Source of the DNA: Justusliebigvirus VEcB
Sequence record: OZ035773.1
Strand: one strand, 5' to 3'
Length of the DNA: 64,000 nucleotides
Numbering within the stretch: position 1 is the stretch's first letter; each line of letters opens with the position of its first letter. The notes under the pieces were generated by a model that was given only the letters and a program-made list of their open reading frames with translations, made no database searches and had not been told where the DNA came from. The position numbers were made by a program, and so were the translations under genes. Of this stretch, positions 1,713 to 56,999 are shown in pieces.

Positions 1713-1729
1713 TATGTTCTCCTTCTAAA

Positions 1730-2164: not shown

Positions 2165-2176
2165 TCTATTCTCCTC

Positions 2177-2997: not shown

Positions 2998-3008
2998 TTT
3001 AACCCCCC

Positions 3009-16533: not shown

Positions 16534-16752
16534 TATTTTGAAAATTTTTATTTTTATAAAAAGGGGTGTGGGTTTCATGTACGGAAATTCACCCTCTGCA
16601 CAGTATACCCAGAGTAAGTATTATTCTATACTCTGTTAATAAAGTATTTAATTTGTTTGTTGGACTATGGTATCTGATCTTTAAAAGGCATACTATCTCT
16701 TAACTACTACTTATAACAGAACAGTAAAATCATTTTTATAAAAAGTACAAAA

Positions 16753-16949
16753 TTATTTAAAGTTTTTACAGATTTTTGGGTACAAATTTTGAAAATGAAA
16801 AGTTCAAGTTTGGTCAAAATTATTTAAAGTTTTTGTACGTATTTCTATCCAGATTTTGAAAATGAAAACTTCAATTTTTTAAAAATTCCCCAGTTTATTT
16901 AAAGTTTTTTTGCCTTTTTCCGTAGAAAAATCAAAAATGAAAAGTTCAA
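16753..16949. repeat. three tandem ~67-75-bp direct repeats (each with TTATTTAAAGTTTTT and TTGAAAATGAAAAGTTCAA)
   Basis: Both sub-motifs recur three times at ~67- and ~75-bp spacing. Confidence 0.6.
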
Positions 16950-16972
16950 TTTCGTGTTTTTATAGGTGTGTT

Positions 16973-17084
16973 AATGAGAATCATTTTCGTTTGTAAATGA
17001 GAATCATTATCATTTAATTATGTAAGTGATAATCATTCTCAGTAAGAGAATGAGAATCATTAGCAAATGAGAATTTTTCTCATT
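16973..17084. promoter_or_regulatory. cluster of five Fur-box-like palindromes (AATGAGAATCATT variants)
   Basis: Sites at ~16973, 16996, 17027, 17049, 17066; closest match TGAGAATCATTATCA vs Fur 7-1-7 core TGATAATnATTATCA. Confidence 0.4.
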
Positions 17085-17346
17085 TAGAGAATAACGCGCA
17101 GGGGTGGTGTTTGTCTCGCGCTCCCGTGTCCCCTCGCCATACAATAAGAATAGCATAACCAACAACAAAAGCAAGCGATTATTTTTATCTTTACATTTCT
17201 TTACAAATTTATTTTAGACGAGCCACCGGCGATCAACCTTCCAACCAGTGCCCCCTGGTATGTTAGCCCCGCCTTTACGCCGTGGGGGTGGCGTTTCCTC
17301 TTCTGTATGTAAAACAGTATAAGCCCGATCCCTGGGCTTGTCAAGA

Positions 17347-26827: not shown

Positions 26828-26968
26828 ATGAACAACCATACCATGAAGATCATAAGGCGTTTACAGCGTGTTTTAGACCGTTTATTTTTAATTTCTTCAT
26901 GCAACTATAGGACAAAAACAGTCTTTTTCTTGTCTTTCCTCTTAAATGATAATCATTCTTATTTATAG
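26828..26968 (+). CDS. possible small ORF (46 aa) reading into a Fur-box-like site
   Basis: Hand-translated MNNHTMKIIRRLQRVLDRLFLISSCNYRTKTVFFLSFLLNDNHSYL; SD AAGGAG 3 nt upstream; speculative. Confidence 0.25.
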   Translation: MNNHTMKIIRRLQRVLDRLFLISSCNYRTKTVFFLSFLLNDNHSYL

Positions 26969-27015
26969 CTGATTATTTATGCAATAAACTGCATAATGCA
27001 ATAATGATAATCATT
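26945..27015. promoter_or_regulatory. two Fur-box-like palindromes (AATGATAATCATT)
   Basis: Sites at ~26945-26957 and ~27003-27015; second reads ATAATGATAATCATTCTTA vs Fur consensus GATAATGATAATCATTATC. Confidence 0.45.
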
Positions 27016-27385
27016 CTTAACTTAAGACCATCTAACTTATAAAATAATAAGTTATCTAACTAAATTAAAGCTAATTATCTTACTTTTATTTATAACATAC
27101 TGTTACTATCTTATTGATAACCTTATATTAAACAACAATAATCAATGTAAATCATTACTAAGCTAACTATAATCTATCTAACCATTAAAACTATAACTAT
27201 AATCTATCGAATTGTTGCACAAAGTAACTATTAAATTGTTAGTAACATTACTAAATAATTCACATCTTATCTATTTATGATCTAATCTTTACCTCCCTAT
27301 TTATTACCTAAATAACCATTTCATGTAGTAATCATTTCATACAATAACTATAACAAGAAATATAATTCGCAAGCGTATCATTAGC

Positions 27386-27539
27386 AGCCTATGCCGGACA
27401 CATAGGCGGCTAATAATAACGCAACTACACCCCCCCACATAATAACTATCGCCGATAGTTATTATTTGTGTTTATGTAGCTTGCAACAATTGCAAGCGCA
27501 ACAATATACATGGTATATTGTATTCCCTTACATTGTTGC
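27386..27539. repeat. cluster of four palindromes/hairpins
   Basis: GCCTATG-n7-CATAGGC (~27386-27406); 27-bp perfect palindrome ATAATAACTATCG-c-CGATAGTTATTAT (~27438-27464); GCTTGCAA-caa-TTGCAAGC (~27478-27496); CAATATAC-atg-GTATATTG nested in CGCAACAAT...ATTGTTGCG (~27496-27539). Confidence 0.55.
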
Positions 27540-27618
27540 GGTGCGTTATTATTAGCTAATGTTTAGAACATTGGCTATAATATAAGCTGCATATAATAAG
27601 CTATACAATAATAAACAT

Positions 27619-27654
27619 AATGAATAATGACACTGAAATGAATAATGACACTGA
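27619..27654. repeat. perfect tandem duplication of 18-bp unit AATGAATAATGACACTGA
   Basis: Two adjacent identical copies. Confidence 0.6.
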
Positions 27655-27794
27655 TGATCATAATGCGCCACCCTCCAGGGGCGCTATGTGAACACAAAGA
27701 AATCTTTCTTGTCAAGAAAAATATCATCATTATTGCGCAAAATTATTTACATCTGAATAGATGATTTTTCATACTATTGCCCCCATATAACTTA

Positions 27795-27853
27795 CTATTT
27801 GTTGCAATGTATTCCCCTATTTGTTGAGCATAGTTATAGCCTATTTGTTGAGC
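27795..27853. repeat. three iteron-like direct repeats CTATTTGTTG(AGC) at ~22-24-bp spacing
   Basis: Copies at ~27795, 27817, 27841 (about two helical turns apart). Confidence 0.55.
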
Positions 27854-27926
27854 CTACTTTCTTAAAAGCGCAATAAATCAGAATTATCTTGATTTTTAGG
27901 TAGTTTTATAGTATAGAAAATATGCA

Positions 27927-27942
27927 AATGATAATCATTATC
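27927..27942. promoter_or_regulatory. Fur-box-like palindrome, best match
   Basis: GCAAATGATAATCATTATC matches Fur consensus GATAATGATAATCATTATC at 17 of 19 positions; overlaps a possible promoter upstream of small ORF 28006. Confidence 0.45.
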
Positions 27943-28005
27943 AGCTATCTTCCACGGGTGGCACTATTTCACACCAGATCATTTCATTTGGCAAGGTGTA
28001 GATAG

Positions 28006-28110
28006 ATGTTTAGACTTGCCAAGTTATTGATTTACTTAGAATTTATCTGTTTTGTTGTAAGTAGAGCCTTTTTTGCTCAGAAAATAATCAAAAGTCTTAT
28101 AAGTCATTGA
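28006..28110 (+). CDS. possible 34-aa hydrophobic peptide flanked by Fur-box-like sites
   Basis: Hand-translated MFRLAKLLIYLEFICFVVSRAFFAQKIIKSLISH; SD AAGGTG 7 nt upstream; speculative. Confidence 0.3.
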   Translation: MFRLAKLLIYLEFICFVVSRAFFAQKIIKSLISH

Positions 28111-28140
28111 ATGATAATGCAAATGATAATTATTCTCATT
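28109..28140. promoter_or_regulatory. composite Fur-box-like site (overlapping GATAAT hexamers)
   Basis: GAATGATAATGCAAATGATAATTATTCTCATT. Confidence 0.4.
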
Positions 28141-28512
28141 GATATTTGAGGGGGACGGTCGGGAAAAATCGGGGGGCGCTGAAAATCGCGTTAAGCACCT
28201 CTCGCAAGCGAGCAGTATTTTGCGGCAAGTTATTGATATTATTGACTTTACGCTTATGAAAAGGGGGTGTGTCGAAATAAATCGGGTATACCGGAAAATT
28301 TTTGTGGCATAGATATTTATTTGTCTATATTATGTACAAAGGGGTGTGTTAAAAATATTAGGTATATATAGAATAATTGATAGGGAAATCCTATACTAAT
28401 TCCTCCATTAATGATGTTTCTATGTTGCTGTTCTTGTAATAGATGAAAAGACGCTGTATGATGTGTGGCATGAAACGTAATCCTACAACGTAATCTTATA
28501 AAGGAGTCTGAT

Positions 28513-28878
28513 ATGTGTGTTCCTCTTAGCAGTCCACTGCTGTTAGAATTTTACAAAGCATGGATGGAAGATCATTCCTCAATGCATCGTGAGAATGTTG
28601 GTTTGTGTAATTGCCTTATGGATTACCTGGCAACCACTATGTCAAAGAAAAAACCTACGGAAGAAGATATAGAACATTTCAAGATGGTTCGTAGCAAAAC
28701 GCTGGAAGAGATGAAACTGCAATTCACGTGTGCTGGGCTATCCTCCTTCCTACCCTTTAATTATGATCTTCTGTGTTATGAAGATGAAGGTAAGACACAT
28801 TCTTGCCATACCAACCCAAAGAGATTGCAGTGGGTGAAAGACAGAATCGAAGATGCAAATAATGCTTGCATTGAATAA
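28513..28878 (+). CDS. hypothetical protein, paralog family A (121 aa)
   Basis: SD AAGGAG; shares LLxFY..W...GLC.CL.D(F/Y)L ... (K/E)R(L/V)QWV.DRI.D with 30575 and 31853 ORFs. Confidence 0.6.
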   Translation: MCVPLSSPLLLEFYKAWMEDHSSMHRENVGLCNCLMDYLATTMSKKKPTEEDIEHFKMVRSKTLEEMKLQFTCAGLSSFLPFNYDLLCYEDEGKTHSCHTNPKRLQWVKDRIEDANNACIE

Positions 28879-28960
28879 AAATGTCTGTATAGTGGTTTGC
28901 ATACCGCGCACGACGCGTTTCCATTTTCAATAAAATGTTAGCATTATGGGGAGGTAGAAA

Positions 28961-29422
28961 ATGAGACAACTATCTATACTGGAAGCACATGTGCAATGTG
29001 TTGCAGATTATGTCAAAGAACACTCAAGTTTGTTGGATGTAACCTGTGCAGTGCAAAATGATGTAGGTATTGTCTGTGTGCGACATATCTTATCTGAAAC
29101 TCGTTATGAAGTATTTCGTGCCAAGTTGTTTGGATGTGATCAAGTGCATGTAAACTTCTTGGATTCCAATTTTCGTTATGCTTTAAAAAATATTGAGGAT
29201 TATCTTCCTTGCTCTCCGACCGGATATGTGATGATGGCAGCAAATGAAGTAACACCAAACAATAGTGAGCGGGAAACTTTGTTACGGAAGAAAATACGCC
29301 AACTGCAAGTGTTGAATGAACTGAAAGAAGAGATTGAAAAAGAACTGAAAGAAGATTTTGGTATGCTTCCAAAAGACGCTTTGAAATGGTTTGATGAACT
29401 AGGAGAGGAAAGTTATGAATAA
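28961..29422 (+). CDS. hypothetical protein, paralog family B (153 aa)
   Basis: SD GGGAGG; N-terminus similar to 35458 ORF (SLL.V...V.N..G.V.V.H.LS.T.Y.VF). Confidence 0.6.
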   Translation: MRQLSILEAHVQCVADYVKEHSSLLDVTCAVQNDVGIVCVRHILSETRYEVFRAKLFGCDQVHVNFLDSNFRYALKNIEDYLPCSPTGYVMMAANEVTPNNSERETLLRKKIRQLQVLNELKEEIEKELKEDFGMLPKDALKWFDELGEESYE

Positions 29423-29591
29423 AGAAACTACTGTGTACTTAGTAACAAAGAATACCCCAGGCTGGAGCCAATGCAGCACTATACCTTACAAGATCTGTGC
29501 AACATTAGAACTAGCACAACGTGCAGAAGCAGAAGTGGATGCCATGCAATACAGCTATGGTGAAATCATTCCTTTTACTCTTGAACAATAA
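29415..29591 (+). CDS. small protein (58 aa), below track threshold
   Basis: Hand-translated MNKETTVYLVTKNTPGWSQC...; SD GGAGAGGAAA. Confidence 0.45.
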   Translation: MNKETTVYLVTKNTPGWSQCSTIPYKICATLELAQRAEAEVDAMQYSYGEIIPFTLEQ

Positions 29592-29602
29592 GGAGTTGTG
29601 TA

Positions 29603-30055
29603 ATGTTTGAAATTGGTAAAGTGTATCGTTTTAAGAACGAATCTTATATCCGTAAGTTTGCTAATGTGTCTGAGTTCAATAACAGGATTGCTTCTTTCTT
29701 AGGTGATTCCTATTTTCGTGTATTAGATATTGATGACTGGTATGGTGTCACTTCTTTGCAATCCTTAGCAGGAGAGCAAGAAATTATCACTCAAAATGAA
29801 GGAGATTTTCTTCAGTGTTACACATTGCTTGTAGAGAGTGAGTTTGAATACTTTGTAGAAGTAGTAGAGGAAGCACCAAAAAGTAAGCATGAAGAGAAAT
29901 ACCTGCTTGTAGTGGATGGAGTTCCAATCGTGGAAACCATCTCCCGTGAGGAAGTTGAAAAAGAGGCAAAACGTTACAAGCTGGATCGTACACAGAGTGT
30001 AGTTGAAGTCTATTCTCTTATTGGTGTTGCAGATGTTCATGTGAACATTGTATAA
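29603..30055 (+). CDS. hypothetical protein (150 aa)
   Basis: Track ORF; SD TAAGGAG. Confidence 0.55.
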   Translation: MFEIGKVYRFKNESYIRKFANVSEFNNRIASFLGDSYFRVLDIDDWYGVTSLQSLAGEQEIITQNEGDFLQCYTLLVESEFEYFVEVVEEAPKSKHEEKYLLVVDGVPIVETISREEVEKEAKRYKLDRTQSVVEVYSLIGVADVHVNIV

Positions 30056-30056
30056 T

Positions 30057-30269
30057 ATGTGTAATGATAGATACATTCTTCGTGTATCTGATAAGTCTCC
30101 TATGTTTGACTGGCGGGGCTGGTGGCTACTAGCTCCGATGCTAGGTCTGACTGACGTGGAAAAGGAGGCTTATGTGTATACAAAAGAAGAGATAGAAGAT
30201 AGCCTTTATTTGACAGATAACATTAAGAATGGTATCTTTGAGTGTAAATTGAAAGGAGAGGAAGAATGA
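30057..30269 (+). CDS. hypothetical protein (70 aa)
   Basis: Track ORF from TTG 30048; first in-frame ATG at 30057; weak RBS. Confidence 0.35.
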   Translation: MCNDRYILRVSDKSPMFDWRGWWLLAPMLGLTDVEKEAYVYTKEEIEDSLYLTDNIKNGIFECKLKGEEE

Positions 30270-30565
30270 CTGTTACAGAAAAACTGCGTTGTATTGCAAA
30301 GCAAAGCGGAGAAGGCTTATGGTTTCCTATTGATGAAGTTATTCAGGACTGTTATGATCAGGCTAAGACTGGCAAATACTCCAAAGCATTTAAACCATCT
30401 GTTTTCGGTTTGGATGATTATCCGACGAATGAACAAGCAAGGAAACGCCAAGTTGATTTGATTGATCTTGCTATGGAAGCACTACGAGAGCGTGGACTTA
30501 GTAAGGTGTATGCTTTAAACACCAAAGAGGGTTTTGTAGATTCAGTGATCGTAGACTGGCATTAA
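30266..30565 (+). CDS. hypothetical protein (99 aa)
   Basis: Track ORF; SD AAAGGAGAGGAAG. Confidence 0.55.
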   Translation: MTVTEKLRCIAKQSGEGLWFPIDEVIQDCYDQAKTGKYSKAFKPSVFGLDDYPTNEQARKRQVDLIDLAMEALRERGLSKVYALNTKEGFVDSVIVDWH

Positions 30566-30574
30566 GGAGCAGCC

Positions 30575-30943
30575 ATGCAAGAGAATAATAAAGTGTGTAA
30601 CATGAAAAGCAGCCCCTATTTGCTACAATTTTATGAGTGGTGGTTGGAACAAGAAGATACAAACTTTAGCAAAAAGCATTATGGTCTTTGCACGTGTCTT
30701 GTAGACTTCTTATACAACATTGCTTGGATAAAAGATGTTGAAAATGTATCAAAACTCCAATCCTCTGTACGAGAGGAAATGAAGGAACAATTTAAGAAAG
30801 CGGGTTTGAACCATTTACACCCATTTAATACAGATTTCTCACATTACTTTACGGAAACAGAGCTAGGCACTGCACACCTTAACAAAGAACGTGTACAATG
30901 GGTGATTGATCGTATTCGTGATATGGAGGAATATAATGGTTAA
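30575..30943 (+). CDS. hypothetical protein, paralog family A (122 aa)
   Basis: SD AAGGAG; family A motifs. Confidence 0.6.
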   Translation: MQENNKVCNMKSSPYLLQFYEWWLEQEDTNFSKKHYGLCTCLVDFLYNIAWIKDVENVSKLQSSVREEMKEQFKKAGLNHLHPFNTDFSHYFTETELGTAHLNKERVQWVIDRIRDMEEYNG

Positions 30944-31145
30944 GTTTAAAACCTTCTGTGCAATCACTGTTTGTCTTATTCTTGCATACGTGTTATTCTC
31001 TGGTATCATTCGTTTAGGTGAGTATATGGCAAGAGAAGCTCGTGAAAGTGAAGCTAAAAAAGAACAGTGCATCGTGTTAAAGCACCAAAGGGATGCTGAA
31101 AAATTTCTTGAACAGGATTGTGGGCGCTATGTGAATTATAATTAG
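30936..31145 (+). CDS. small membrane-anchored protein, paralog family C (69 aa)
   Basis: From ATG 30936 (SD GGAGGA): N-terminal TM helix, C-terminal KEQCIVLKHQRDAEKFLEQDC shared with 35933 ORF. Confidence 0.55.
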   Translation: MVKFKTFCAITVCLILAYVLFSGIIRLGEYMAREARESEAKKEQCIVLKHQRDAEKFLEQDCGRYVNYN

Positions 31146-31154
31146 GAGGGAAGT

Positions 31155-31403
31155 ATGTTAGATATTTTTACCTTTGATCGTGTTGGTACACCGATTACCG
31201 AAGAAGAACGTACCAAAATTGAACAAGAATTGGATGCTTTACGTGCGTCTCTTACAGACACAGCCTCACTACAACGTGAAGCTGCACATCTCACAGAGAT
31301 CACTGGTATTCAGTGGAACACGGAGTGGGTTGTAATTACAATTGAAGCGGATATTTGGGGACATGAAGAGACGCTACGTACCGGAGTAGTAACGGTTTGG
31401 TGA
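31155..31403 (+). CDS. hypothetical protein (82 aa)
   Basis: Track ORF; SD TAGGAGGGAAG. Confidence 0.55.
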   Translation: MLDIFTFDRVGTPITEEERTKIEQELDALRASLTDTASLQREAAHLTEITGIQWNTEWVVITIEADIWGHEETLRTGVVTVW

Positions 31404-31449
31404 TAGATGTTATTCTTTTGTGTTTCTTGATATATAAATAGGAGGGTTT

Positions 31450-31674
31450 ATGGTAAAACGTCTGGAATGGGATGCGTGTACTGCTCACGCTTGTCACTGT
31501 GATATTGTTGAAGATCCTAATGGAGAGATGGTGTATTATGAGGATTACGAAGCATTGCACAATGCTGTGATTGCTTTACTGGATGATATTAGCTCACGCT
31601 ATCCAGGACAACAATTCACGTGTCCACATATCCAACTATTAGCCGAACTTACGGAGTATCCAAGTGTTCCATAA
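31450..31674 (+). CDS. hypothetical Cys-rich protein, paralog family D (74 aa)
   Basis: SD TAGGAGGG; CHCDIVEDPNGEMVYYEDYEAL similar to 36818 ORF. Confidence 0.55.
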   Translation: MVKRLEWDACTAHACHCDIVEDPNGEMVYYEDYEALHNAVIALLDDISSRYPGQQFTCPHIQLLAELTEYPSVP

Positions 31675-31675
31675 T

Positions 31676-31843
31676 ATGGGTGTCCCTGAACAACTGCTCT
31701 TTATTGTAGGATTAGTAGGCTTATTGGCGGCTGGCGCTAAAGCCGCTTCTCACACGCATCACATAATGTTAAGATTTCTGTTCCTACTCCCTTCTATCCT
31801 TGTATTATTAGTCATATTGATTGATAACATTTTTCACAATTAA
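31676..31843 (+). CDS. small membrane protein (55 aa), below track threshold
   Basis: Hand-translated MGVPEQLLFIVGLVGLLAAGAKAASHTHHIMLRFLFLLPSILVLLVILIDNIFHN; two hydrophobic segments. Confidence 0.4.
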   Translation: MGVPEQLLFIVGLVGLLAAGAKAASHTHHIMLRFLFLLPSILVLLVILIDNIFHN

Positions 31844-31852
31844 GGAGAGGTT

Positions 31853-32437
31853 ATGAGTAAAATTATACCAAGCAGTTATGAATTATTGCAGTTTTATGTA
31901 TATTACTTAGACTGGGTTAATAGATCGAATGTTAAAGACAATGCGATGTTTAGTAAAAACATCTGTTTAACAGAAAGTATCTTCCGTTATTGGCACACAG
32001 GCAGAAAGTGTACACACAGTGAAGCTATGCGCATTGTAGGTGAATACCTGGAGCAATTGCAAAAAGCAGAACTTCCTGTCCTTCACCCATTCAACGAATC
32101 TAAAGAAGAATTAGAACAAGAGTGTAGAGAAGGTAAGTGCCATTTAAATGAAAAACGTATCGAATGGGTGAGGCAACGTTTAGCCGATGCAGGGAATCCT
32201 CCTAGTGACTCTGACTATACGTGGTATGATGTAGAGGGTTTAGTTCAAGGTTTTGAGGCTTGTGCTATAGGTAATACCAACTTTGCCAAAGTTTTATGCG
32301 AGGTTTATGATCTGGCAGATAAAATCCGAAATCACGGATGGAAACAAGAGCATAAAGAATCATATGAACGCCTTGACAAGATTTTCAAACAGATCTATTC
32401 TAACCACAAAGAGATGTTCCAAATGGAGGATGTGTAA
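31853..32437 (+). CDS. hypothetical protein, paralog family A, extended (194 aa)
   Basis: SD TAAGGAGAGG; family A N-terminal motifs. Confidence 0.55.
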   Translation: MSKIIPSSYELLQFYVYYLDWVNRSNVKDNAMFSKNICLTESIFRYWHTGRKCTHSEAMRIVGEYLEQLQKAELPVLHPFNESKEELEQECREGKCHLNEKRIEWVRQRLADAGNPPSDSDYTWYDVEGLVQGFEACAIGNTNFAKVLCEVYDLADKIRNHGWKQEHKESYERLDKIFKQIYSNHKEMFQMEDV

Positions 32438-33123
32438 TGAAAGAGATTATGTTTGAAGGGCATCGTTACGAAGTTCCAGACAATGCAAATTTCATGGCTC
32501 GTGATATCACTGGAGATGTGTTCTGGTTTGAAGATGAACCTGTGTTTTCTTCGAACAAACACTGGTTTTCACAACAATCTTCTTCGGAAAATATGACTTT
32601 TGGCTACGTAGAGCCTAAAGTGCGCTGCAAAGCAGCTTCTTCTTTGGTAGAAATTTCCCAAGATGATCAAGAAAATACTCCAGATGTTGTTAGTGCACTA
32701 CTGAAGTACATTGCAGAACTTGAGAAGAAAATTAAAGAAGCAGAAACTAAGGTGAAAGCACGATCAGCCATCATTGAAGCTATGTCTGAACGTATCTTAG
32801 AGCTAGAAGATTTGTGTGGAGAGGCTTATCAAGTGGTTGGTGCGCTGGCTTGTGAAGCACAAATGTTTGAAACTTCAGAACAAGTTTCACATATGTTAGA
32901 TAATTTGAGTGAATGTAAAATGATTCATGATGATGTATTGCCATTTTGTTGCAATGTTAACAAAACAGAGCAAACACAAGATTCAGAAACAGTTTATGTT
33001 CCGCTAATGTGTGTTCCAGATCATCTAAAAGGTGTATTCTCTTGTAAATGGTCGCTGTTGAGCGTTACTAATTGTGGTGAAAACTATTCTGCCAACATTG
33101 AATTGCTAAAACACGTTAAATAA
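32437..33123 (+). CDS. hypothetical protein (228 aa)
   Basis: Track ORF; SD GGAGGATG. Confidence 0.55.
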   Translation: MKEIMFEGHRYEVPDNANFMARDITGDVFWFEDEPVFSSNKHWFSQQSSSENMTFGYVEPKVRCKAASSLVEISQDDQENTPDVVSALLKYIAELEKKIKEAETKVKARSAIIEAMSERILELEDLCGEAYQVVGALACEAQMFETSEQVSHMLDNLSECKMIHDDVLPFCCNVNKTEQTQDSETVYVPLMCVPDHLKGVFSCKWSLLSVTNCGENYSANIELLKHVK

Positions 33124-33133
33124 GGAGAGTAAT

Positions 33134-33538
33134 ATGTGGTCTGTTAAAATCAAATATAATGCGCAGTATTATGGTGGAAAGCCTTACGAAGTTGTTATTT
33201 GTGACTGTATCTCTAAAGAAGTTGCACAGCTTTGTGGCGCTGGTGTTAGTGAAGCTATGAACAAAATGCATAACTCGACTGTGCGTTACCTGGATCAAGA
33301 TATTCCAGAAGATGTAAATGACTATGCTTACGAAGTTATTTACAGTGAAGGTAAGAAGCTCTCTATTGAAGATGCACTTAAAGCACTACCTGCTATGTGC
33401 AGCCCAACGCCAGAAGCAGTTAAAGAGGTTTTACCAGAATCCAACCCCGATGAATATGCTTCTATGGTTGCTTCAGATATGTGGAATCTCTGTCGAGAAA
33501 CTATGATTAAAAATCTTGTGGAAATGGCGCATGAGTAA
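33134..33538 (+). CDS. hypothetical protein (134 aa)
   Basis: Track ORF; SD TAAGGAGAG. Confidence 0.55.
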   Translation: MWSVKIKYNAQYYGGKPYEVVICDCISKEVAQLCGAGVSEAMNKMHNSTVRYLDQDIPEDVNDYAYEVIYSEGKKLSIEDALKALPAMCSPTPEAVKEVLPESNPDEYASMVASDMWNLCRETMIKNLVEMAHE

Positions 33539-33749
33539 AACACACTTTATACATCCGTTTGATCCAAAGAACAAGGCGGTTATACACCGCCGTTGGACTG
33601 AAACGCGCATTACAAAATGTCCTGTGCCAGCAGCACAGGAATATAACAAAACATATAAAGCAGAATTTGTGGAGTACACCTTTGTAAATAACAAAGGGAA
33701 GGAGGTTTATGTTCCAGAATACTGCCTTTGGATAAAATGGGAGGAATAA
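33531..33749 (+). CDS. hypothetical protein (72 aa)
   Basis: Track ORF from TTG 33516; first ATG at 33531; weak RBS. Confidence 0.35.
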   Translation: MSKTHFIHPFDPKNKAVIHRRWTETRITKCPVPAAQEYNKTYKAEFVEYTFVNNKGKEVYVPEYCLWIKWEE

Positions 33750-33916
33750 TGCAAACATTTTTTATCGACAAGTTCAATAAAAGTATGAACACGTGGATGG
33801 CAACATTCACTATGCAATTTGCGTCATTTAAAGAAGCTCAAGAATGGTGCGATCAACACAAGGATTTTGATTTTTACTATCAAGTTAATGCAAACCTTTC
33901 TCCAGAGGAGAAATAA
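33749..33916 (+). CDS. hypothetical protein (55 aa)
   Basis: From ATG 33749 with SD GGGAGGAATA; track ORF starts 7 codons upstream. Confidence 0.45.
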   Translation: MQTFFIDKFNKSMNTWMATFTMQFASFKEAQEWCDQHKDFDFYYQVNANLSPEEK

Positions 33917-33917
33917 T

Positions 33918-34262
33918 ATGTTGGCTGATATTGAAATCCTTATGTACCGACAAGGTATGATCAAAATGTGGTTAGATTCTTTTAGCAACATATACTGCAC
34001 AGTACGATCAGCAGACGAGCGTAAAACGCTTATTTTATCTGCTATTGTTGATAAACAACGTTTCTTCAAAGAAATTTTGCAAACAGGCTTCTCCGATGCA
34101 GGAGTAGAAATTGCAACTCTTAGTTTTGGGGTGCTGTCTTACTTGGAATCTGTTGTTTTATATGTCTTCTCTTTAGAGGAAGACTTGCAATTCGAAGCAT
34201 TAAAACTTATCTTAGATGCTGCAATTGACATAGAACAAAATCGAATTGATTCTTTTGAATAA
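33918..34262 (+). CDS. hypothetical protein (114 aa)
   Basis: From ATG 33918 with SD GAGGAGAAATA; track ORF extends 33 codons upstream across previous gene. Confidence 0.5.
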   Translation: MLADIEILMYRQGMIKMWLDSFSNIYCTVRSADERKTLILSAIVDKQRFFKEILQTGFSDAGVEIATLSFGVLSYLESVVLYVFSLEEDLQFEALKLILDAAIDIEQNRIDSFE

Positions 34263-34277
34263 AATAAGGAGAAAACT

Positions 34278-34736
34278 ATGAAAGAGGTTAAACATTATCC
34301 ACATGGTCGTAGTTTTGTAGCTGTATGGCATGTTCCTGCTCGTAATGAACTATTTTGTGCATCTTTTCATTACAAAGATGGACAATATTTCACCTATGAC
34401 GAGACGATGGATGATTTTATCCCAGAGTGCGATCATGGGTATACACCAATGTTCTTTAAACGTATGAAAGCTCGTTTCTTCGTTACAGATGTTGATGGTG
34501 AACCTACTTGGCACATCGAAGAAGATTGGCAAGATTCTGTAGATATTAAAGAAGCCCCAGAATGGGCTACACTACTGGTACACGTCAAAACCCCTACTCT
34601 TGACGTTATGGCGTGGGTTAATCATGATGATACCCATTACCAATACATAAATGGTAGCACAGAGATTTCTGGTGAGATTATTGGTCGTTGGAAGCCTACG
34701 AATCAGGTTGCTATTGTCGGGTATAAGACAGTATAA
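34278..34736 (+). CDS. hypothetical protein (152 aa)
   Basis: Track ORF; SD TAAGGAGAAAA. Confidence 0.55.
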   Translation: MKEVKHYPHGRSFVAVWHVPARNELFCASFHYKDGQYFTYDETMDDFIPECDHGYTPMFFKRMKARFFVTDVDGEPTWHIEEDWQDSVDIKEAPEWATLLVHVKTPTLDVMAWVNHDDTHYQYINGSTEISGEIIGRWKPTNQVAIVGYKTV

Positions 34737-34737
34737 T

Positions 34738-34932
34738 ATGAAAAAGAGTGTAGATTGGGATGATTTATCCGATTTTGAAAAATGGTTTTTAGGTAGTGGT
34801 TGTTATGCAGATGGGGATCTCGAAAGAGATCCTTCTGGAAACTACACTATGCCATTAACCCAAGGTTTTTATGAGTGCTGGTGCGCAGCACAAAACAACG
34901 TACTGAATAAGGAGACAACACAATGCAATTAA
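34738..34932 (+). CDS. hypothetical protein (64 aa)
   Basis: From ATG 34738 adjacent to previous stop; weak RBS. Confidence 0.4.
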   Translation: MKKSVDWDDLSDFEKWFLGSGCYADGDLERDPSGNYTMPLTQGFYECWCAAQNNVLNKETTQCN

Positions 34933-35162
34933 ACATCGGACAACCAATTTTTGATGCAGATACTGGTCAATATGCAGTGATTGTTGCTCGTATGAGCGGT
35001 GATGACCTTATTGTTTCAGAACTACTCGGATCAGATCCGCAACTGCGCGTAGTATGTGACCTATATCTTCGAGACGAAAGTGATCGCATTGCACTGAAAG
35101 AAGATGGTATGCTCTACTATACCTGGACTAGAGATCCTGGGGTAACGGAGGTAGAGGTATAA
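34923..35162 (+). CDS. hypothetical protein (79 aa)
   Basis: Track ORF; SD TAAGGAGACA. Confidence 0.55.
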   Translation: MQLNIGQPIFDADTGQYAVIVARMSGDDLIVSELLGSDPQLRVVCDLYLRDESDRIALKEDGMLYYTWTRDPGVTEVEV

Positions 35163-35461
35163 TGGTAAGGAATAGGGGTTTACATAAAAGAAGACACCTT
35201 ACTTACTGGCATCGTAAAGTACATGAACCTGTATCAAAGAAAGAATGGCAATATCTGCCTTATGGGAAGGAGCGAAGAAAGTATCTGTTAGCTCATTTAA
35301 GGGTACATGGTTCTCTTCCTGTTAACAGTAAGTGGCAATTGCAAACAGCTTATGACGAAGATATGAAATATCTGTTAAAGAGAGGCATTATTTGCCTTGT
35401 TAAGATAGGGCGATGGAAATCTCGTCAATCTTATATCGTACTTAAACAGGAGAAACCATGA
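35162..35461 (+). CDS. hypothetical highly basic protein (99 aa)
   Basis: Track ORF; SD ACGGAGGTAGAGG; Lys/Arg/His-rich. Confidence 0.5.
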   Translation: MVRNRGLHKRRHLTYWHRKVHEPVSKKEWQYLPYGKERRKYLLAHLRVHGSLPVNSKWQLQTAYDEDMKYLLKRGIICLVKIGRWKSRQSYIVLKQEKP

Positions 35462-35709
35462 ATATCAAAGATGTTGTAGCATATGTAGAAGATGAAGTTA
35501 AAAACCATACAAGTTTACTGAAAGTAATGGTTGTGGTTAAAAATGGCATTGGACAAGTAAACGTACAACATGTCTTATCTGATACTGTATATAATGTGTT
35601 TGAATGTAAAGACACACCTCATGGAGTACGTGTGGTGTATATTGATAACAATTTCAAAGAGTGTGTGAGACATACCTTAGAAAATGAGCTAAGGATCACA
35701 ATCTTATGA
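35458..35709 (+). CDS. hypothetical protein, paralog family B, short form (83 aa)
   Basis: SD CAGGAGAAACC; similar to N-terminus of 28961 ORF. Confidence 0.55.
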   Translation: MNIKDVVAYVEDEVKNHTSLLKVMVVVKNGIGQVNVQHVLSDTVYNVFECKDTPHGVRVVYIDNNFKECVRHTLENELRITIL

Positions 35710-35879
35710 GTTATTATGTTGTACCCTATGCCAATAAGTGGAGAGTAAGAGAAACTTGTTTTCTATTCTCCTGGTGGGCTACGTTCGGAGATGGTTGTGG
35801 AAATGATACAGGGAAGCCTGTAGAGTACGACACAAAAGAAGAATGTGAACAGTGGATAAAATTAACACAAAGATGTTGA
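35706..35879 (+). CDS. small Cys/Trp-rich protein (57 aa), below track threshold
   Basis: Hand-translated MSYYVVPYANKWRVRETCFLFSWWATFGDGCGNDTGKPVEYDTKEECEQWIKLTQRC; ATGA overlap with previous stop. Confidence 0.35.
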   Translation: MSYYVVPYANKWRVRETCFLFSWWATFGDGCGNDTGKPVEYDTKEECEQWIKLTQRC

Positions 35880-35932
35880 CACGATCTTAACTTCTTGTTA
35901 GTATCAATGTGTACTAACGATAAGGAGGGTTT

Positions 35933-36157
35933 ATGAAGTCTGTAAACAAGTTGCAACAATTTTTGTTATCAACAGCAATCTTTTTGCTTTTGTTAATTGG
36001 TATTCTGTATGGTGCATCTAACTTATACAATCTACATAATGATGTAGAACAGAATAAAGAGAAGTGCATCATTCTAAAACACAAGAAACAAGCAGAAGAT
36101 TTCTTAAAGAATAAGTGTTACAACTACATTGATTATGAGGAGACAAACAATGATTAA
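35933..36157 (+). CDS. small membrane-anchored protein, paralog family C (74 aa)
   Basis: SD TAAGGAGGG; N-terminal TM helix, C-terminal KEKCIILKHKKQAEDFLKNKC motif. Confidence 0.55.
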   Translation: MKSVNKLQQFLLSTAIFLLLLIGILYGASNLYNLHNDVEQNKEKCIILKHKKQAEDFLKNKCYNYIDYEETNND

Positions 36158-36392
36158 AGAATTAGGTATGCGAGTATACAGTGAGTGGACTCCAAGCAAT
36201 GGCCCAGGAGTTGTTGCAGCTAAATGTATCAATGGTCGTATTGAGTACCTGGAAGGGTATGAAGATAATGAAGAGTTAGTAGATTATGCTAAATCTTTTA
36301 TTGAAGATGATACAGACTTTATTGTATTATATGATACAGGAGAGTTAGAGTATGGATATGATGGAGATGGGGATATCTTTGAACTTCAATAA
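36150..36392 (+). CDS. hypothetical acidic protein (80 aa)
   Basis: From ATG 36150 with SD GAGGAGACAAACA. Confidence 0.5.
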   Translation: MIKELGMRVYSEWTPSNGPGVVAAKCINGRIEYLEGYEDNEELVDYAKSFIEDDTDFIVLYDTGELEYGYDGDGDIFELQ

Positions 36393-36486
36393 GAGTAGTA
36401 AGTAAGGTATAAAGAGTATATAGTTAGTTATAGAGTTAGTAACATTACATATACTCTTTCTATGTATAACATGGAATATTCTCTAC

Positions 36487-36540
36487 CTCGCTATCGCTCG
36501 GTATATAAGATTAGGGTAGCATGTTTTTTACGAAAAGTAA
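36487..36540 (+). repeat. conserved ~55-bp non-coding element, copy B (CTCGCTATCGCTCG ... TTAGGGTAGCATGTTTTTT)
   Basis: Matches element at ~9584-9640. Confidence 0.4.
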
Positions 36541-36599
36541 AACTGTTTGTACCGATTGATAGCAGGTTTTTAATAGATTTTATCTATGAGGAGTAGAAA

Positions 36600-36818
36600 G
36601 TGTACAAATTATATAAAGCAAAAGATAAGTTTACGGGTAATACATCTGGTTTCTATGTAACACCTCGGGGTGTTGCTGTGTTCGATTGGATCTCCGGTAC
36701 TCCAGATCGGGAAATGATCTCTCTTGTAAAACTGTCGGAACAAGAGTACACTTACGGTGACATTACAACATTCTATTCTCGTGCAGAAAATCCAAAACTG
36801 ATTGCGGAGTGGGAATAA
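36600..36818 (+). CDS. hypothetical protein (72 aa), GTG start
   Basis: Track ORF; SD GAGGAG 7 nt upstream of GTG. Confidence 0.45.
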   Translation: MYKLYKAKDKFTGNTSGFYVTPRGVAVFDWISGTPDREMISLVKLSEQEYTYGDITTFYSRAENPKLIAEWE

Positions 36819-37081
36819 TGGTTACACGATATGACTTAGAGGTGTACAGCCAAGGTGCTGCTGGTCAATGTGATATTGTACCAGATCCAGAAGGGGATTA
36901 TGTTCTTCTTGCTGATTACAATAAGCTAGAAGAAAGACTTCTGGCTGTGTATGCTAAAGAGAACAAAACAATCTGCCCTTATTGCAGTGGAATGGGTTGG
37001 GTAGTTGCAGATGTTGGACAAATGTATGAATGTGTGCCTTGTAAAACCACAGGATTTATTGAAAAGGATACTGACAAATGA
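36818..37081 (+). CDS. hypothetical Cys-rich protein, paralog family D (87 aa)
   Basis: From ATG 36818; QCDIVPDPEGDYVLLADYNKLEE similar to 31450 ORF; C-terminal CPYCSG...CVPC. Confidence 0.5.
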   Translation: MVTRYDLEVYSQGAAGQCDIVPDPEGDYVLLADYNKLEERLLAVYAKENKTICPYCSGMGWVVADVGQMYECVPCKTTGFIEKDTDK

Positions 37082-37326
37082 CTGTAGCAGATAAAATGAG
37101 AGAACTGGCAGAAAACGCAGAACTTAACAAAGCAAAAGAGAGTTTACAAAACGTCTACGCGTATATTGAAAGAGCAGCTAAAGATGGAGACAGAGAAGCT
37201 GCTATATACACGCTCTATCCAACTTTCGTAAAAGTTAGCTTGGATGCTGAAGGTTTTTCAACTTTTATTGATACAGAAACATCTCATTACGATGAAAACT
37301 TTACTCGAATAGTTATTCGATGGTAA
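37078..37326 (+). CDS. hypothetical protein (82 aa)
   Basis: Track ORF; 4-nt overlap with previous gene. Confidence 0.5.
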   Translation: MTVADKMRELAENAELNKAKESLQNVYAYIERAAKDGDREAAIYTLYPTFVKVSLDAEGFSTFIDTETSHYDENFTRIVIRW

Positions 37327-37431
37327 ATTTCTGATATTTATGCGCCCTGGCTACCTGGGCGTAATAAATTCAGCTTATATTTGATCCGCGCCTTCGGCGC
37401 TTAGGCAAAGCCACGCCACACAGGAGAGTTT

Positions 37432-37842
37432 ATGTTCAAATGGTTAAAAGAGTTTCTAACATCTTTGGCAGAACCTAAGCAAGATGTTATTAAAAGCTCT
37501 ATCACAGGAAAACCGCTTGTTATAGTTACAGGCGGCTTTGGTCATGGGTTTTCTCTTAAACAAACAGATATAGGTTTACAGGGATCTTTGATTAGTTTTA
37601 GAATCACTCAATTAGGAGATAATAGACAAACAATCTTAGACCTTTTCAATGGGGAATTTGATGACTATTTATCCAAGAGTGGTAAAGAACGTCTGATCGA
37701 GCATATAAAACACCGCTATGAGCATGGTGGTTACTACTTAGATACAAAACGTAATGCACAAGGTGATCTTGACATAGTTCGTATAGCGTGGGATAATGAA
37801 TTTAAAACTAAACTTGGTAAACTTCTGGAGGAGTTATGGTAA
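37432..37842 (+). CDS. hypothetical protein (136 aa)
   Basis: Track ORF; SD CAGGAGAG. Confidence 0.55.
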   Translation: MFKWLKEFLTSLAEPKQDVIKSSITGKPLVIVTGGFGHGFSLKQTDIGLQGSLISFRITQLGDNRQTILDLFNGEFDDYLSKSGKERLIEHIKHRYEHGGYYLDTKRNAQGDLDIVRIAWDNEFKTKLGKLLEELW

Positions 37843-38018
37843 ATATTAAAACAGGTGATATTGTACGTCTTGCTAGTGAAGAAATGTTAATGACTGTAAT
37901 GGTATCTACCTACGATACTTGCGAAGTGGTGTGGTTTGATGTTAATGAACAACTACAGAAAGCTACATTTGATAAACGTATGCTTCGTAAAGTTGAAGAA
38001 GTGAAGGAGGAAGAATAA
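37836..38018 (+). CDS. hypothetical protein (60 aa)
   Basis: Track ORF; SD GGAGGAG. Confidence 0.5.
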   Translation: MVNIKTGDIVRLASEEMLMTVMVSTYDTCEVVWFDVNEQLQKATFDKRMLRKVEEVKEEE

Positions 38019-38019
38019 T

Positions 38020-38232
38020 ATGGGAATGTTGCTTCGTGTTTTTGTGTTTCTTATGTTCTGGATTATCGTTGGTAACGGTATTGTATTTTTGATTTTTCCT
38101 GAAGTGATGACAGGTAATGAAAATAAGGCAGTGCCTTACATTATGCTTATCGGTTACGGTATTGGTACACTTGGACTACTGTTTGCTGATTGGTTGATCA
38201 ATACTTTGTTCTCTAAGTACAGGAACAACTAA
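38020..38232 (+). CDS. small membrane protein (70 aa, 2 TM segments)
   Basis: Track ORF; SD GAAGGAGGAAG; hydrophobic. Confidence 0.55.
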   Translation: MGMLLRVFVFLMFWIIVGNGIVFLIFPEVMTGNENKAVPYIMLIGYGIGTLGLLFADWLINTLFSKYRNN

Positions 38233-38233
38233 T

Positions 38234-38506
38234 ATGTCGGAAAAATTACCTAACGTTTTCTTTTGTTTTGTAGATTGCGTTACACAAGAAATTATAGTTG
38301 ACGAAGAAGGTATGTTTACTTATTTTGCATCTGAAGAAGAGGCAAAACTATCAGCTATGAAGTGTATAAGCCAATTGTCAGTACCTGCTGTCAACAGGTT
38401 CGGTATTGCACAGGTGTATAAAACAGTAACAGAGTTTACACCAGATCGAAAACTAACTTTTCTTAACGTTCACTTTGTTTGTAAGTTTAGTGAACTACGA
38501 CATTAA
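38234..38506 (+). CDS. hypothetical protein (90 aa)
   Basis: Track ORF. Confidence 0.5.
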   Translation: MSEKLPNVFFCFVDCVTQEIIVDEEGMFTYFASEEEAKLSAMKCISQLSVPAVNRFGIAQVYKTVTEFTPDRKLTFLNVHFVCKFSELRH

Positions 38507-38519
38507 ATCAGGAGTAAAA

Positions 38520-39119
38520 ATGAAAGAATATTGGAGTGGTGAGAAGGGCTTGCTAAAGTCAGGAATGCTTTTGCGAGTAAAGAACATGTTGATCACACAA
38601 GATTACATAATGCCTAATCCTGGAGCATTAGTAGAATTCCTTACTGCGCGAGATCAACCTGGGGTTGGTGAAATGTGGATTGTAACGTGGATATCTCTCG
38701 ATAGTAAATTACGCGTTGCTCCTATTGACCCAAAACACTTGGAATCTCCTTACGCCAGCATTGATTCTCGGATCATAGATTTGGCTAGAGTTTATAAGGC
38801 TAGGACTGGTGTAGAATTAGATGTAGAAATTTTAAATCAATGTATTGACTTCTTACCTGAAAAAGTGCATAATGCACAACAAGAAGATAGCGGTTTAGAA
38901 GTTATTCTTCTGAATGATGGGATGTTCTCTGGTCTGGCATCTGTAGATTTTCCAATAACATTAAGATTGTTACCTGGGGAATACGTACTGGATGACACTA
39001 CTATTGCTATATCCTCTAAAATTTTAGAACTCATTCCAGGTGCAAGGTGTGTTGGTGATACATCTTCCTTGCTGTTTACTCTGAATGAAGAAGCCATTAT
39101 AGTTAAAAAGGAGAAGTAA
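38520..39119 (+). CDS. hypothetical protein (199 aa)
   Basis: From ATG 38520 with SD CAGGAGTAAAA; track ORF starts 15 codons upstream. Confidence 0.55.
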   Translation: MKEYWSGEKGLLKSGMLLRVKNMLITQDYIMPNPGALVEFLTARDQPGVGEMWIVTWISLDSKLRVAPIDPKHLESPYASIDSRIIDLARVYKARTGVELDVEILNQCIDFLPEKVHNAQQEDSGLEVILLNDGMFSGLASVDFPITLRLLPGEYVLDDTTIAISSKILELIPGARCVGDTSSLLFTLNEEAIIVKKEK

Positions 39120-39224
39120 ATGATGACGTTTATTGTTGGTGTTGTTGTTGGTTATTTTGGTCACAAGTATCAGGATGTTATCATCGCTAAAGTTGACGAA
39201 GTAATCGAAAAATTTAAACACTAA
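39120..39224 (+). CDS. 34-aa peptide with hydrophobic N-terminus
   Basis: Hand-translated MMTFIVGVVVGYFGHKYQDVIIAKVDEVIEKFKH; strong SD AAAAGGAGAAG. Confidence 0.35.
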   Translation: MMTFIVGVVVGYFGHKYQDVIIAKVDEVIEKFKH

Positions 39225-39275
39225 TTTTCTAAAAGGCTGTACTATTGTGCAGCCTATCTTTCAAAGGAGAGTAAA

Positions 39276-39449
39276 ATGTTCAAAGATACCAATTATAAAT
39301 GTGTACATTGTGGTAAATCTTTTGGTGATCACAAAGCTAAAACATTCAATTGTCCACGAAAAGGGCGAGGTAGCTTTAAAGGTTTTAATCCATCTCACGT
39401 TTATTCTCCCAACTACGAGAAACCAGAAGAAGAAAAATTTGTAATCTGA
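39276..39449 (+). CDS. small zinc-ribbon-like protein (57 aa)
   Basis: Hand-translated MFKDTNYKCVHCGKSFGDHKAKTFNCPRKGRG...; SD AAAGGAGAG; preferred over overlapping track ORF 39247-39444 which has no RBS. Confidence 0.45.
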   Translation: MFKDTNYKCVHCGKSFGDHKAKTFNCPRKGRGSFKGFNPSHVYSPNYEKPEEEKFVI

Positions 39450-39458
39450 GGAGGCAAT

Positions 39459-39746
39459 ATGGAACTAGTGCAAGAAGTTTATGAAAAACTGAAAGAAGAG
39501 AATCTTGATTGGCCTGAACATGCTCTTATTGTCGTCAAAGATACTAATGGTGAAATAAAATTCTCAAGTGTAAGTGAAGATGATGTTGTTTTAAGTCCTA
39601 CAGGATATTATATGAGAGGTGTTACGTGTCTATTCAACACCAAAGTGTATCCTGAAATTAAACTTAGTTACGGTGAACCTGATCATCCAGAAATCGTTAC
39701 ACGTAATGAATATGAAAATTATTATTTTGCTCGTGAAAGCAAATAA
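39459..39746 (+). CDS. hypothetical protein (95 aa)
   Basis: Track ORF; SD TGAGGAGG. Confidence 0.55.
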   Translation: MELVQEVYEKLKEENLDWPEHALIVVKDTNGEIKFSSVSEDDVVLSPTGYYMRGVTCLFNTKVYPEIKLSYGEPDHPEIVTRNEYENYYFARESK

Positions 39747-39754
39747 GGAAAACT

Positions 39755-40078
39755 ATGCAAAAAATAAACACTGGTTCTCGTCCTAAACAGAAGCAAACAA
39801 AAGCAAGGGTATCTTATGTTGACAACTCTTGTTATAATTTCAAAAATGTTAAAGAAGTTATCATTGATGAAAAAGAAGGTTTGATTCACATTTCATCTGA
39901 ACGTTTGAAAGGTAGTGTTACTCTTCGTGAGAATGTATCTATACCTATGAAAGTTGTGGCTACACTCTGTGTTGATAAACCAGATGTTGTTAACTACTAT
40001 GTGTTCCGTGATAGTTGTATTTCATTACATAATAAGATTTTTAAATCTTCGCACGTTAAAACAAAACACATTGTATAA
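39755..40078 (+). CDS. hypothetical protein (107 aa)
   Basis: Track ORF; SD TAAGGAAAA. Confidence 0.55.
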   Translation: MQKINTGSRPKQKQTKARVSYVDNSCYNFKNVKEVIIDEKEGLIHISSERLKGSVTLRENVSIPMKVVATLCVDKPDVVNYYVFRDSCISLHNKIFKSSHVKTKHIV

Positions 40079-40083
40079 CACAT

Positions 40084-40108
40084 AAACCCGCTTCGGCGGG
40101 TTTTCTTG
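40084..40108 (+). terminator. rho-independent terminator
   Basis: CCCGC-ttcg-GCGGG followed by TTTTCTTG. Confidence 0.65.
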
Positions 40109-56997: not shown

Positions 56998-56999
56998 TA

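Follow-up and report, generated by a model that had tools for sequence, protein, structure and literature searches.

The left-end small-gene block of Justusliebigvirus VEcB, an Escherichia coli phage, carries nine genes that belong to four paralogous families, here called families A to D. We analysed a 64,000-nucleotide stretch of this genome (sequence record OZ035773.1; one strand, 5' to 3'), referred to below as the window. The results showed that the paralogy is real, that the duplications are old, and that the copies do not form a repeating cassette. The best explanation, which we hold with moderate confidence, is that the genes sit in a left-end early host-takeover block, in which old paralogues of the Stephanstirmvirinae gene pool are kept as seven core and two recombining accessory copies, and that their products would bind host targets. 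The family members, with their counterparts in phage phi92 (gp numbers), and the elements that frame them are listed here by window position.

26900 to 28512, no strand: non-coding leader, holding the equivalent of the phi92 343-bp terminal repeat (about 27851 to 28193) and Fur-box-like palindromes
28513 to 40078, + strand: small-gene block of about 36 tightly packed or overlapping genes, taken from the list of open reading frames (ORFs) and the annotation of relatives
28513 to 28878, + strand: A1, family A, 121 amino acids, accessory; matches the family A profile at an expectation value (E) of 6e-32
28961 to 29422, + strand: B1, long form of family B, 153 amino acids, accessory; phi92 gp001; phrog_14944
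30575 to 30943, + strand: A2, core, 122 amino acids; phi92 gp006; 97-99% identical in all relatives examined
30936 to 31145, + strand: C1, 69 amino acids; phi92 gp007; overlaps the end of A2 by 8 nucleotides; phrog_15662, cross-match to phrog_23204
31450 to 31674, + strand: D1, 74 amino acids, with an N-terminal hairpin-helix module and a degenerate zinc finger; phi92 gp008; phrog_23083, cross-match to phrog_22955
31853 to 32437, + strand: A3, core, 194 amino acids, with a C-terminal extension of about 75 amino acids; phi92 gp010; founder of phrog_27059
35458 to 35709, + strand: B2, short form of family B (domain only), core, 83 amino acids; phi92 gp020; phrog_27423
35933 to 36157, + strand: C2, 74 amino acids; phi92 gp022
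36818 to 37081, + strand: D2, 87 amino acids from the ATG at 36818 (a GTG at 36809 is possible); phi92 gp025

We compared the 36 proteins of the small-gene block with one another by blastp and derived Smith-Waterman z scores from 1000 shuffles. Within family A, A1 and A2 aligned at E = 1e-25 with 40% identity over 115 amino acids (z = 34), A2 and A3 at E = 1e-10 with 31% identity (z = 16.4), and A1 and A3 at E = 9e-8 with 29% identity (z = 12.6). The pairs B1-B2 (E = 2e-11, 43% identity over 74 amino acids, z = 17.8), C1-C2 (E = 6e-9, 50% over the 30-amino-acid tail, z = 17.5) and D1-D2 (E = 2.5e-5, 36% over the N-terminal 44 amino acids, z = 9.5, Gumbel p = 3e-6) were also significant. Profile searches of the PHROG library (38,880 families) showed that every copy matched its own PHROG at E of 1e-23 to 1e-138 and the PHROG of its paralogue at E of 1e-4 to 1e-18. 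Family A was assigned to phrog_2510, phrog_27059 and phrog_6418, B to phrog_14944 and phrog_27423, C to phrog_15662 and phrog_23204, and D to phrog_23083 and phrog_22955. A1 and A2 matched phrog_2510 (5.5e-23 and 4.4e-26), and A3 matched phrog_27059 (1.5e-138) and phrog_2510 (5e-18); the cross-matches were 1e-11 and 3e-12 for B, 1.3e-7 and 1.5e-8 for C, and 4.2e-4 and 3e-4 for D. The PHROG collection splits the paralogue pairs into separate families and assigns none a function, whereas here the pairs align significantly. Because blastp, shuffle z scores, PHROG cross-matches and coordinates all agree, the paralogy proposed in the initial annotation, with three A copies and two each of B, C and D, is real, and every proposed pair held up in both pairwise and profile alignment. 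The KExCIxLKHxxxAExFL tail motif described for family C was recovered in the alignment, and the D2 start at 36818 agrees with the annotation of relatives. Family D had been called Cys-rich; its two proteins do contain 4 and 5 Cys, but the homology is restricted to about 45-55 N-terminal residues (xCDIVxDPxGxxVxxxDYxxL). We found no additional members of families A to D elsewhere in the window, and no two of the remaining genes of the block had a common PHROG. Transfer RNA (tRNA) and Rfam scans of the window gave zero matches, the PADLOC and NCBIfam scans found nothing relevant, and word-indexed homologue searches returned 1, 24 and 7 matches, none with a name or a Pfam domain. Dozens of genome records already list the genes themselves as hypothetical proteins. 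A literature search found no paper on these genes, on their experimental study or on their within-genome paralogy; this paralogy and the exchange of the left edge between genera, described below, appear not to have been described previously.

The window belongs to a phi92-like myovirus of the genus Justusliebigvirus, subfamily Stephanstirmvirinae. Megablast of positions 28000-38000 matched 128 phage records, the best at 97-98% identity over 93-100% of the query, and the top records were the Escherichia phages Antha, EmilieFrey and phi92 together with other Justusliebigvirus members. In phi92 and Salmonella phage UAB_1, the nucleotide match begins at record position 152, which places position 1 of phi92 at about window position 27851; a 343-bp left direct terminal repeat is annotated in these comparison records. 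The small-gene block begins about 320 bp inside the left terminal repeat boundary, has a positive GC skew along its entire length, and is closed by a bidirectional terminator-like hairpin at 40084-40103. Immediately upstream of A1, at 28250-28370, we observed two copies of AAAGGGGTGTGT(N6-8)AT(N3)GGTATA beside promoter-like hexamers; these repeats may be a phage-specific promoter or operator motif.

To characterise family A, we searched clusters at 50% identity (1.84 billion representatives) with a profile of the three window copies. The profile matched 691 clusters at E ≤ 1e-3 and 133 at E ≤ 1e-10, and A3 matched it at E = 2.5e-29 over residues 8-116. Most members are 100-120 amino acids long, some consist of two or three tandem domains in one polypeptide, and in some cases the domain is an internal module of modular prophage proteins of 250-400 amino acids. 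By tblastn and in a viral structure library, the family occurs in Stephanstirmvirinae, rV5-like phages of about 137-143 kb, 43-48 kb phages of Salmonella and Klebsiella, phages of about 75-77 kb of Erwinia and Escherichia, an Achromobacter phage, phages of Rhizobium, Burkholderia and Pectobacterium, and a jumbo Burkholderia phage. Members are frequently found within the first few kb of the record, and in the early region of an N4-like phage one sits between the gp1/gp2 homologues and the RNA polymerase gene. Copy number is 2-4 per record in Justusliebigvirus and 1-8 in Phapecoctavirus. An unrelated contig (L006; NCBI GCA_040383985.1) carries four family A genes, which are adjoined by six DUF6197 genes at locus positions 1-3879. 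Same-strand small-gene arrays close to a genome end, in which domain families recur, are a feature that this contig and the N4-like phages have in common with the window. Family A matched no Pfam, NCBIfam or PADLOC family and no source names its proteins; likewise, no characterised member of families A to D was found in any model phage. Lambdoid prophage proteins with a phrog_60/660-type N-terminal module, which are presumably ead/Ea22-like, contain the family A domain internally, whereas the window A proteins stand alone. A solved-structure search with the family A model returned no Ea22 chain and no other significant match.

Alignment of 112 members revealed near-invariant positions (A2 numbering) at L16, F19, Y20, G37, L38, C39, E68, Q72, F73, L78, P83, F84, N103, R106, W109 and V110, with Y91, E94 and H101 present in most. 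R106 was found in all 112 members, C39 in 111, Q72 in 105, E68 in 103, N103 in 102, E94 in 88 and H101 in 87. In an alignment of four A sequences, the three window copies had F19, Y20, E68, Q72, P83, F84, N85, H101, N103, R106, W109 and V110 in common. All three match the family profile across nearly its full length and keep most of the conserved residues, and the A copies therefore fit one shared core function with diverged surfaces. The polar constellation (C39, E68, Q72, N103 and R106, joined by H101 and E94 in most members) points to a common site for binding or catalysis. The AlphaFold2 model of A2 (mean predicted local distance difference test score, pLDDT, 89; predicted template modelling score, pTM, 0.81) has six helices, and two fold searches of the PDB found no match among solved structures, anti-defence proteins included. 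Family A is a large, unnamed phage domain with a probably new fold. We tentatively extend this to a widespread all-helical domain whose invariant Cys, Glu, Gln, Asn and Arg (plus His) might form a catalytic or ligand site, and whose multi-copy sets (2-8 genes or 2-3 fused domains) might cover several early host targets or signals. We also considered the sigma-factor-binding protein Crl. A2 alone matched three Crl chains (E = 0.009) and NF008217, but the match was lost with the 112-sequence profile, was absent from both fold searches and did not reach the NCBIfam cut-off of 117 bits; we dismissed it as a chance match.

Family B is defined by an N-terminal domain of about 80 amino acids with invariant D16, H42, S45, Y49, D68 and N70, to which B1 adds a charged helical tail. 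The family is confined to Stephanstirmvirinae, no relatives were found in the PDB or Pfam, and B2 is at least 95% identical in 49 phage records. The phi92 record notes a 'transcription-repair coupling factor fold' (TRCF, Mfd) for gp001, the B1 counterpart. We rejected this assignment: there was no CarD_TRCF or Mfd match in Pfam at E ≤ 1, and a nine-sequence family B profile found none in the PDB.

Family C proteins start with Lys-rich residues, continue into a hydrophobic helix of about 19 residues and end in a tail where two conserved Cys lie 16 residues apart. A cleavable signal peptide is annotated in phi92 gp022, the C2 counterpart (SignalP probability 0.985), and the family C proteins are likely exported or membrane-anchored. 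By the positive-inside rule, the tail would face the periplasm, where the two Cys could form a disulfide. T4 Imm and Sp and T5 Llp are small exported early phage proteins that act at the envelope. Family C resembles them in size (about 70 amino acids), in its predicted N-terminal signal or anchor helix, in its short tail, which would lie on the extracytoplasmic, periplasm-facing side, and in its position in an early block, but has no sequence similarity to them (no Pfam match) and no lipobox. C2 was found by tblastn in Justusliebigvirus-type genomes only (55 records). Ahead of C2, positions 35876-35904 hold a promoter-like TTGACA-17-TAGTAT sequence that has an upstream TG.

In family D, the AlphaFold2 model of D1 is weak (pLDDT 65.7) and has a beta-hairpin at residues 19-29 followed by a long helix or helices. 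The C-terminus of D2 carries a putative DnaJ-type zinc finger, CPYCSGMG ... CVPCKTTG, in which the first half is the full CxxCxGxG motif and the second is CxxCxxxG; D1 retains the first of the four Cys. D2 matched Pfam DnaJ_CXXCXGXG (PF00684) at E = 0.033, with 14.9 bits against a cut-off of 32.7, and had a weak NCBIfam match too; phi92 gp025 is noted as having a 'predicted DnaJ-like zinc finger domain'. D2 shares the CxxCxGxG-type spacing with PF00684 and anti-TRAP-like zinc ribbons, but differs from DnaJ in having one finger pair, no J domain and a score far below the cut-off. D1-type genes also occur in phages of about 40 kb, including Kagunavirus, and in Escherichia phages of about 68-69 kb. 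A Lar-like restriction alleviation protein (phrog_3592, PF14354) was rejected as an identity for family D: D1 matched 47 of 182 profile positions at E = 7.7e-4, D2 did not match phrog_3592, and neither matched PF14354 in Pfam at E ≤ 1. Elsewhere in the window, at 56854-57009 on the - strand, a small ORF encodes a DnaJ-type zinc finger, CPICGGTG ... CWNCNGLG, that is similar to the D2 C-terminus (tblastn E = 8e-4).

On the host-takeover reading, each product would be a small single-domain protein made soon after DNA entry that binds a host macromolecule or ligand, with paralogues keeping a common core and differing in target specificity. The early timing is suggested by the position and operon-like packing of the genes, and the binding function by the small size of the proteins, which matched no known enzymatic family. 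Family A would contribute an all-helical domain of about 110 amino acids, multi-copy in many unrelated phages, with the polar constellation as its shared site. Family B would contribute the subfamily-restricted domain, with or without the tail; family C would most likely act at the cell envelope, for example in superinfection exclusion; and family D would contribute the hairpin-helix module, joined in D2 to the putative zinc finger. Several points weigh against this reading. The literature search found no transcriptome for this phage group, so that 'early' is deduced from position only; none of the nine proteins has a reported partner or phenotype; and a scan of this AT-rich DNA for promoter-like sites gave 55, hardly different from the 52.7 that chance would produce. 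Divergence is much the same in the B, C and D pairs (36-44%), which is compatible with a shared ancient segmental duplication, an origin that we consider improbable and return to below. Finally, family A might be an enzyme instead of a stoichiometric binder, given its near-invariant polar residues. Its domain would then have a new fold that serves catalysis or the binding of small molecules and not protein-protein inhibition, and its paralogues would differ in substrate. The persistence of these residues across 112 diverse members, the nearly full-length profile matches of the window copies and the many phage types that carry the family are consistent with such a role. It is nevertheless a tentative possibility: the family has no sequence or fold similarity to known enzymes, the domain is only about 110 amino acids long and all-helical, and H101 is substituted in 25 of the 112 members.

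We then compared gene content at the left edge among relatives. A1 is deleted in phi92, where a short remnant is left; UAB_1, Antha and EmilieFrey carry it, and EmilieFrey has in addition a second family A gene, 50% identical. B1 is swapped for unrelated genes in EmilieFrey and UAB_1, and the A1-B1 segment was covered to at least 80% by 4 of 124 matching records. The DNA is 94% identical to that of Phapecoctavirus tuntematon over window positions 28549-28903 and 92% identical over 28899-29594, and no nucleotide similarity to tuntematon was found beyond 29594; three additional small genes sit between A and B in tuntematon. Among the proteins, A1 shares 90% identity with its tuntematon counterpart and B1 shares 89-90% with Phapecoctavirus phAPEC8_0023 and nepoznato_131, while the additional A protein of EmilieFrey is 97% identical to one of the copies in Phapecoctavirus phiWec186. 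A2 and A3 had no Phapecoctavirus counterpart above 40% identity. The copies therefore form two classes, a core class (A2, A3, B2, C1, C2, D1 and D2) and an accessory left-edge class (A1 and B1) exchanged between genera, and the variability of the families is confined to this edge. Because B1 is sporadic in Justusliebigvirus and so close to the Phapecoctavirus gene, the presence of both B1 and B2 in one genome looks like import rather than in-place duplication. Next to this segment, at 29603-30055, a 150-amino-acid protein matched 14 PHROGs, two of them annotated 'goF mRNA metabolism modulator' (E = 9e-8 and 2e-3), and had two tandem relatives in phiWec186 (locus positions 14337 and 14868). At the level of the subfamily, it is a fifth multi-copy family.

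The paralogues share 30-45% amino-acid identity, and the DNA similarity left between them amounts to 39 nucleotides at 74% and 38 nucleotides at 76%. In phiWec186, separate D1-type (70% identical) and D2-type (48%) genes are already present, together with one B gene and seven family A genes within 24 kb; family C was not detected there. Since identity is this low, almost no DNA similarity is left and both D types occur in the sister genus, the duplications are old, and the D duplication predates the split of Justusliebigvirus and Phapecoctavirus. Synonymous sites are saturated between paralogues at this level of identity. We next estimated the ratio of non-synonymous to synonymous substitution rates (dN/dS) from pooled Nei-Gojobori counts for the window and its orthologues in five Justusliebigvirus genomes. 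The values were 0.05 for A2 and D2, 0.06 for D1, 0.09 for B2, 0.10 for C1, 0.14 for A1, 0.15 for A3 and 0.22 for C2; B1 gave 0.78 from only 12 substitutions. Eight of the nine copies (0.05-0.22) are thus under purifying selection. As these ratios are low and no higher than those of neighbouring genes, the copies are functional, conserved and not fast-evolving. The seven core copies are 86-100% identical in five Justusliebigvirus relatives, and about 49-55 phage records contain close matches to A2, B2, C2 and D1. Three records of about 146 kb labelled 'Campylobacter phage' (MG065645, MG065639 and MG065689; A145, A150 and A110a) contain A2 at 97.5% and C2 at 89% identity; their C. jejuni host label probably reflects an error or mixed samples.

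These data bear on the view, put forward in the initial annotation, that the locus is a rapidly evolving site of host interaction or counter-defence. Rapid evolution was contradicted by the low dN/dS, the conserved core and the age of the duplications. The host-interaction part fared better, as duplicated, diverged small genes are found where such genes are expected and the left edge is variable, but the core is not fast-evolving; likewise, presence and absence across relatives differed for A1 and B1 and not for the seven core copies. In its full form, the alternative states that this is an arms-race locus whose paralogues are inhibitors of immune systems, duplicating and diverging fast under diversifying selection. 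The varying left-edge gene content and its exchange between genera, the varying copy number of family A, the small and early genes, as in typical anti-defence regions, and the weak D1 match to the Lar-like PHROG are in line with it. We nevertheless regard it as rather unlikely: the selection and conservation data oppose diversification, the D duplication is older than the genus split, no fold similarity to solved anti-defence proteins was found, and the Lar-like match spans part of the profile and lacks Pfam support. In addition, the BASEL study reported these phages to be exceptionally susceptible to restriction-modification systems (PMC8594841), which argues against an effective anti-restriction role. 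A counter-defence role for the left-edge genes is possible, though weakened by this susceptibility and by the conservation of the core copies. Atd1, the sole anti-defence gene reported for the genus, is a MazG-like enzyme unrelated to families A to D.

We also examined gene order, for which the initial annotation had described a C-x-D cassette repeated twice. One gene lies between C1 and D1:

31155 to 31403, + strand: 'x' gene, 82 amino acids, an accessory insertion outside families A to D; not in phi92, UAB_1 or KMB37

In phi92, UAB_1 and KMB37, C1 and D1 are adjacent. Between C2 and D2 there are two or three genes, namely 36150-36392, a 44-amino-acid ORF at 36462-36596, and 36600-36818. Comparison of gene 31155-31403 with the intervening genes 36129 and 36600 of the second set gave z = -0.4 and -0.5 (1000 shuffles) and no common PHROG, and no homology was found between the genes starting at 29415 and 35706. 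Because the intervening genes are non-homologous and their number varies (one against two or three, and none in phi92), the cassette claim fails, and the small-gene block has no repeating cassette unit. The B-C-D order does occur twice on the + strand (B1<C1<D1; B2<C2<D2), as in a repeated cassette, but this is weak evidence on its own, since for order alone chance gives such a match about once in 6 cases. We also considered gene 36150-36392 as a hidden third D copy, which would give two adjacent C-D pairs, and rejected it, as the D N-terminal profile matched it at E = 13. The idea arose from P0174, a metagenome protein of 73 amino acids that fuses D1 residues 1-33 (window 31450-31550) to the C-terminus of gene 36150-36392 (36250-36392) at a short YEDxE microhomology. 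P0174 would imply either a variant from which about 4.7 kb, with A3 through C2, has been deleted or a chimera made during assembly.

A single ancient segmental duplication of a B-C-D unit, later blurred by insertions and deletions, could also produce two runs in the same order on the same strand. Its pairs should be similarly diverged, and they are (B 43%, C 35-50%, D 36%); the adjacency of C1 and D1 in phi92 is also in its favour. The non-homology of the intervening genes, the sporadic and Phapecoctavirus-like B1, the chance rate of the order and the state of Phapecoctavirus, which has D1-type and D2-type genes, one B and no detectable C in another order, argue against it, and we judge such an event unlikely. 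That the nine ORFs are chance reading frames or decaying pseudogenes without function, as their small size and their lack of annotation and known-family matches might suggest, is ruled out with near certainty by the excess of synonymous over non-synonymous changes (61 versus 15 in A2, for example), the conservation across phage records, the breadth and confident fold of family A, and the ribosome-binding sites annotated for these genes in the phi92 record.

The window contains palindromes close to the E. coli Fur box consensus, which we take to be GATAATGATAATCATTATC. Such palindromes lie at 26944-27030, 27924-27945 and 28119-28140, and also at 16970-17064 and 4463-4481. The pattern AATGATAATCATTATC with ≤3 mismatches occurred 22 times against 2.1 expected, and the best palindrome, GCAAATGATAATCATTATC at 27924, matched the assumed consensus at 17 of 19 positions. 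Two palindromes fall within the terminal-repeat equivalent and are conserved in the repeats of phi92 and UAB_1, and similar ones lie upstream of the phiWec186 early block. The palindromes might serve as Fur sites, coupling early transcription to iron status, or as operators for a phage protein. An AT-rich non-coding region at 16730-17100 has three or four direct repeats with a period of about 65 bp (ATTATTTAAAGTTTTT ... TTTTGAAAATGAAAAGTTCAA), directly followed by four or five tandem AATGAGAATCATT palindromes, an arrangement that resembles iterons, an origin or a regulatory array.

The corrected picture is of a conserved locus under purifying selection that is not organised in cassettes, and it matches the multi-copy small early genes familiar from large phages. 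Small early genes without an assigned function make up a large share of big phage genomes and have been a source of host-takeover and anti-defence finds. Here, about 36 anonymous genes are narrowed to a few testable items: family A, which is modelled with confidence, lacks a solved relative and offers well-defined residues for mutation; the family C pair of predicted exported, Cys-containing peptides, which are candidates for envelope or exclusion functions; and the left-edge island. If the tentative multi-copy reading of family A is true, A1-type copies at the left edge would represent a shared allele pool moving between phage genera. This island of about 1 kb, exchanged between two genera of therapeutic E. 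coli phages, may bear on differences in host range.

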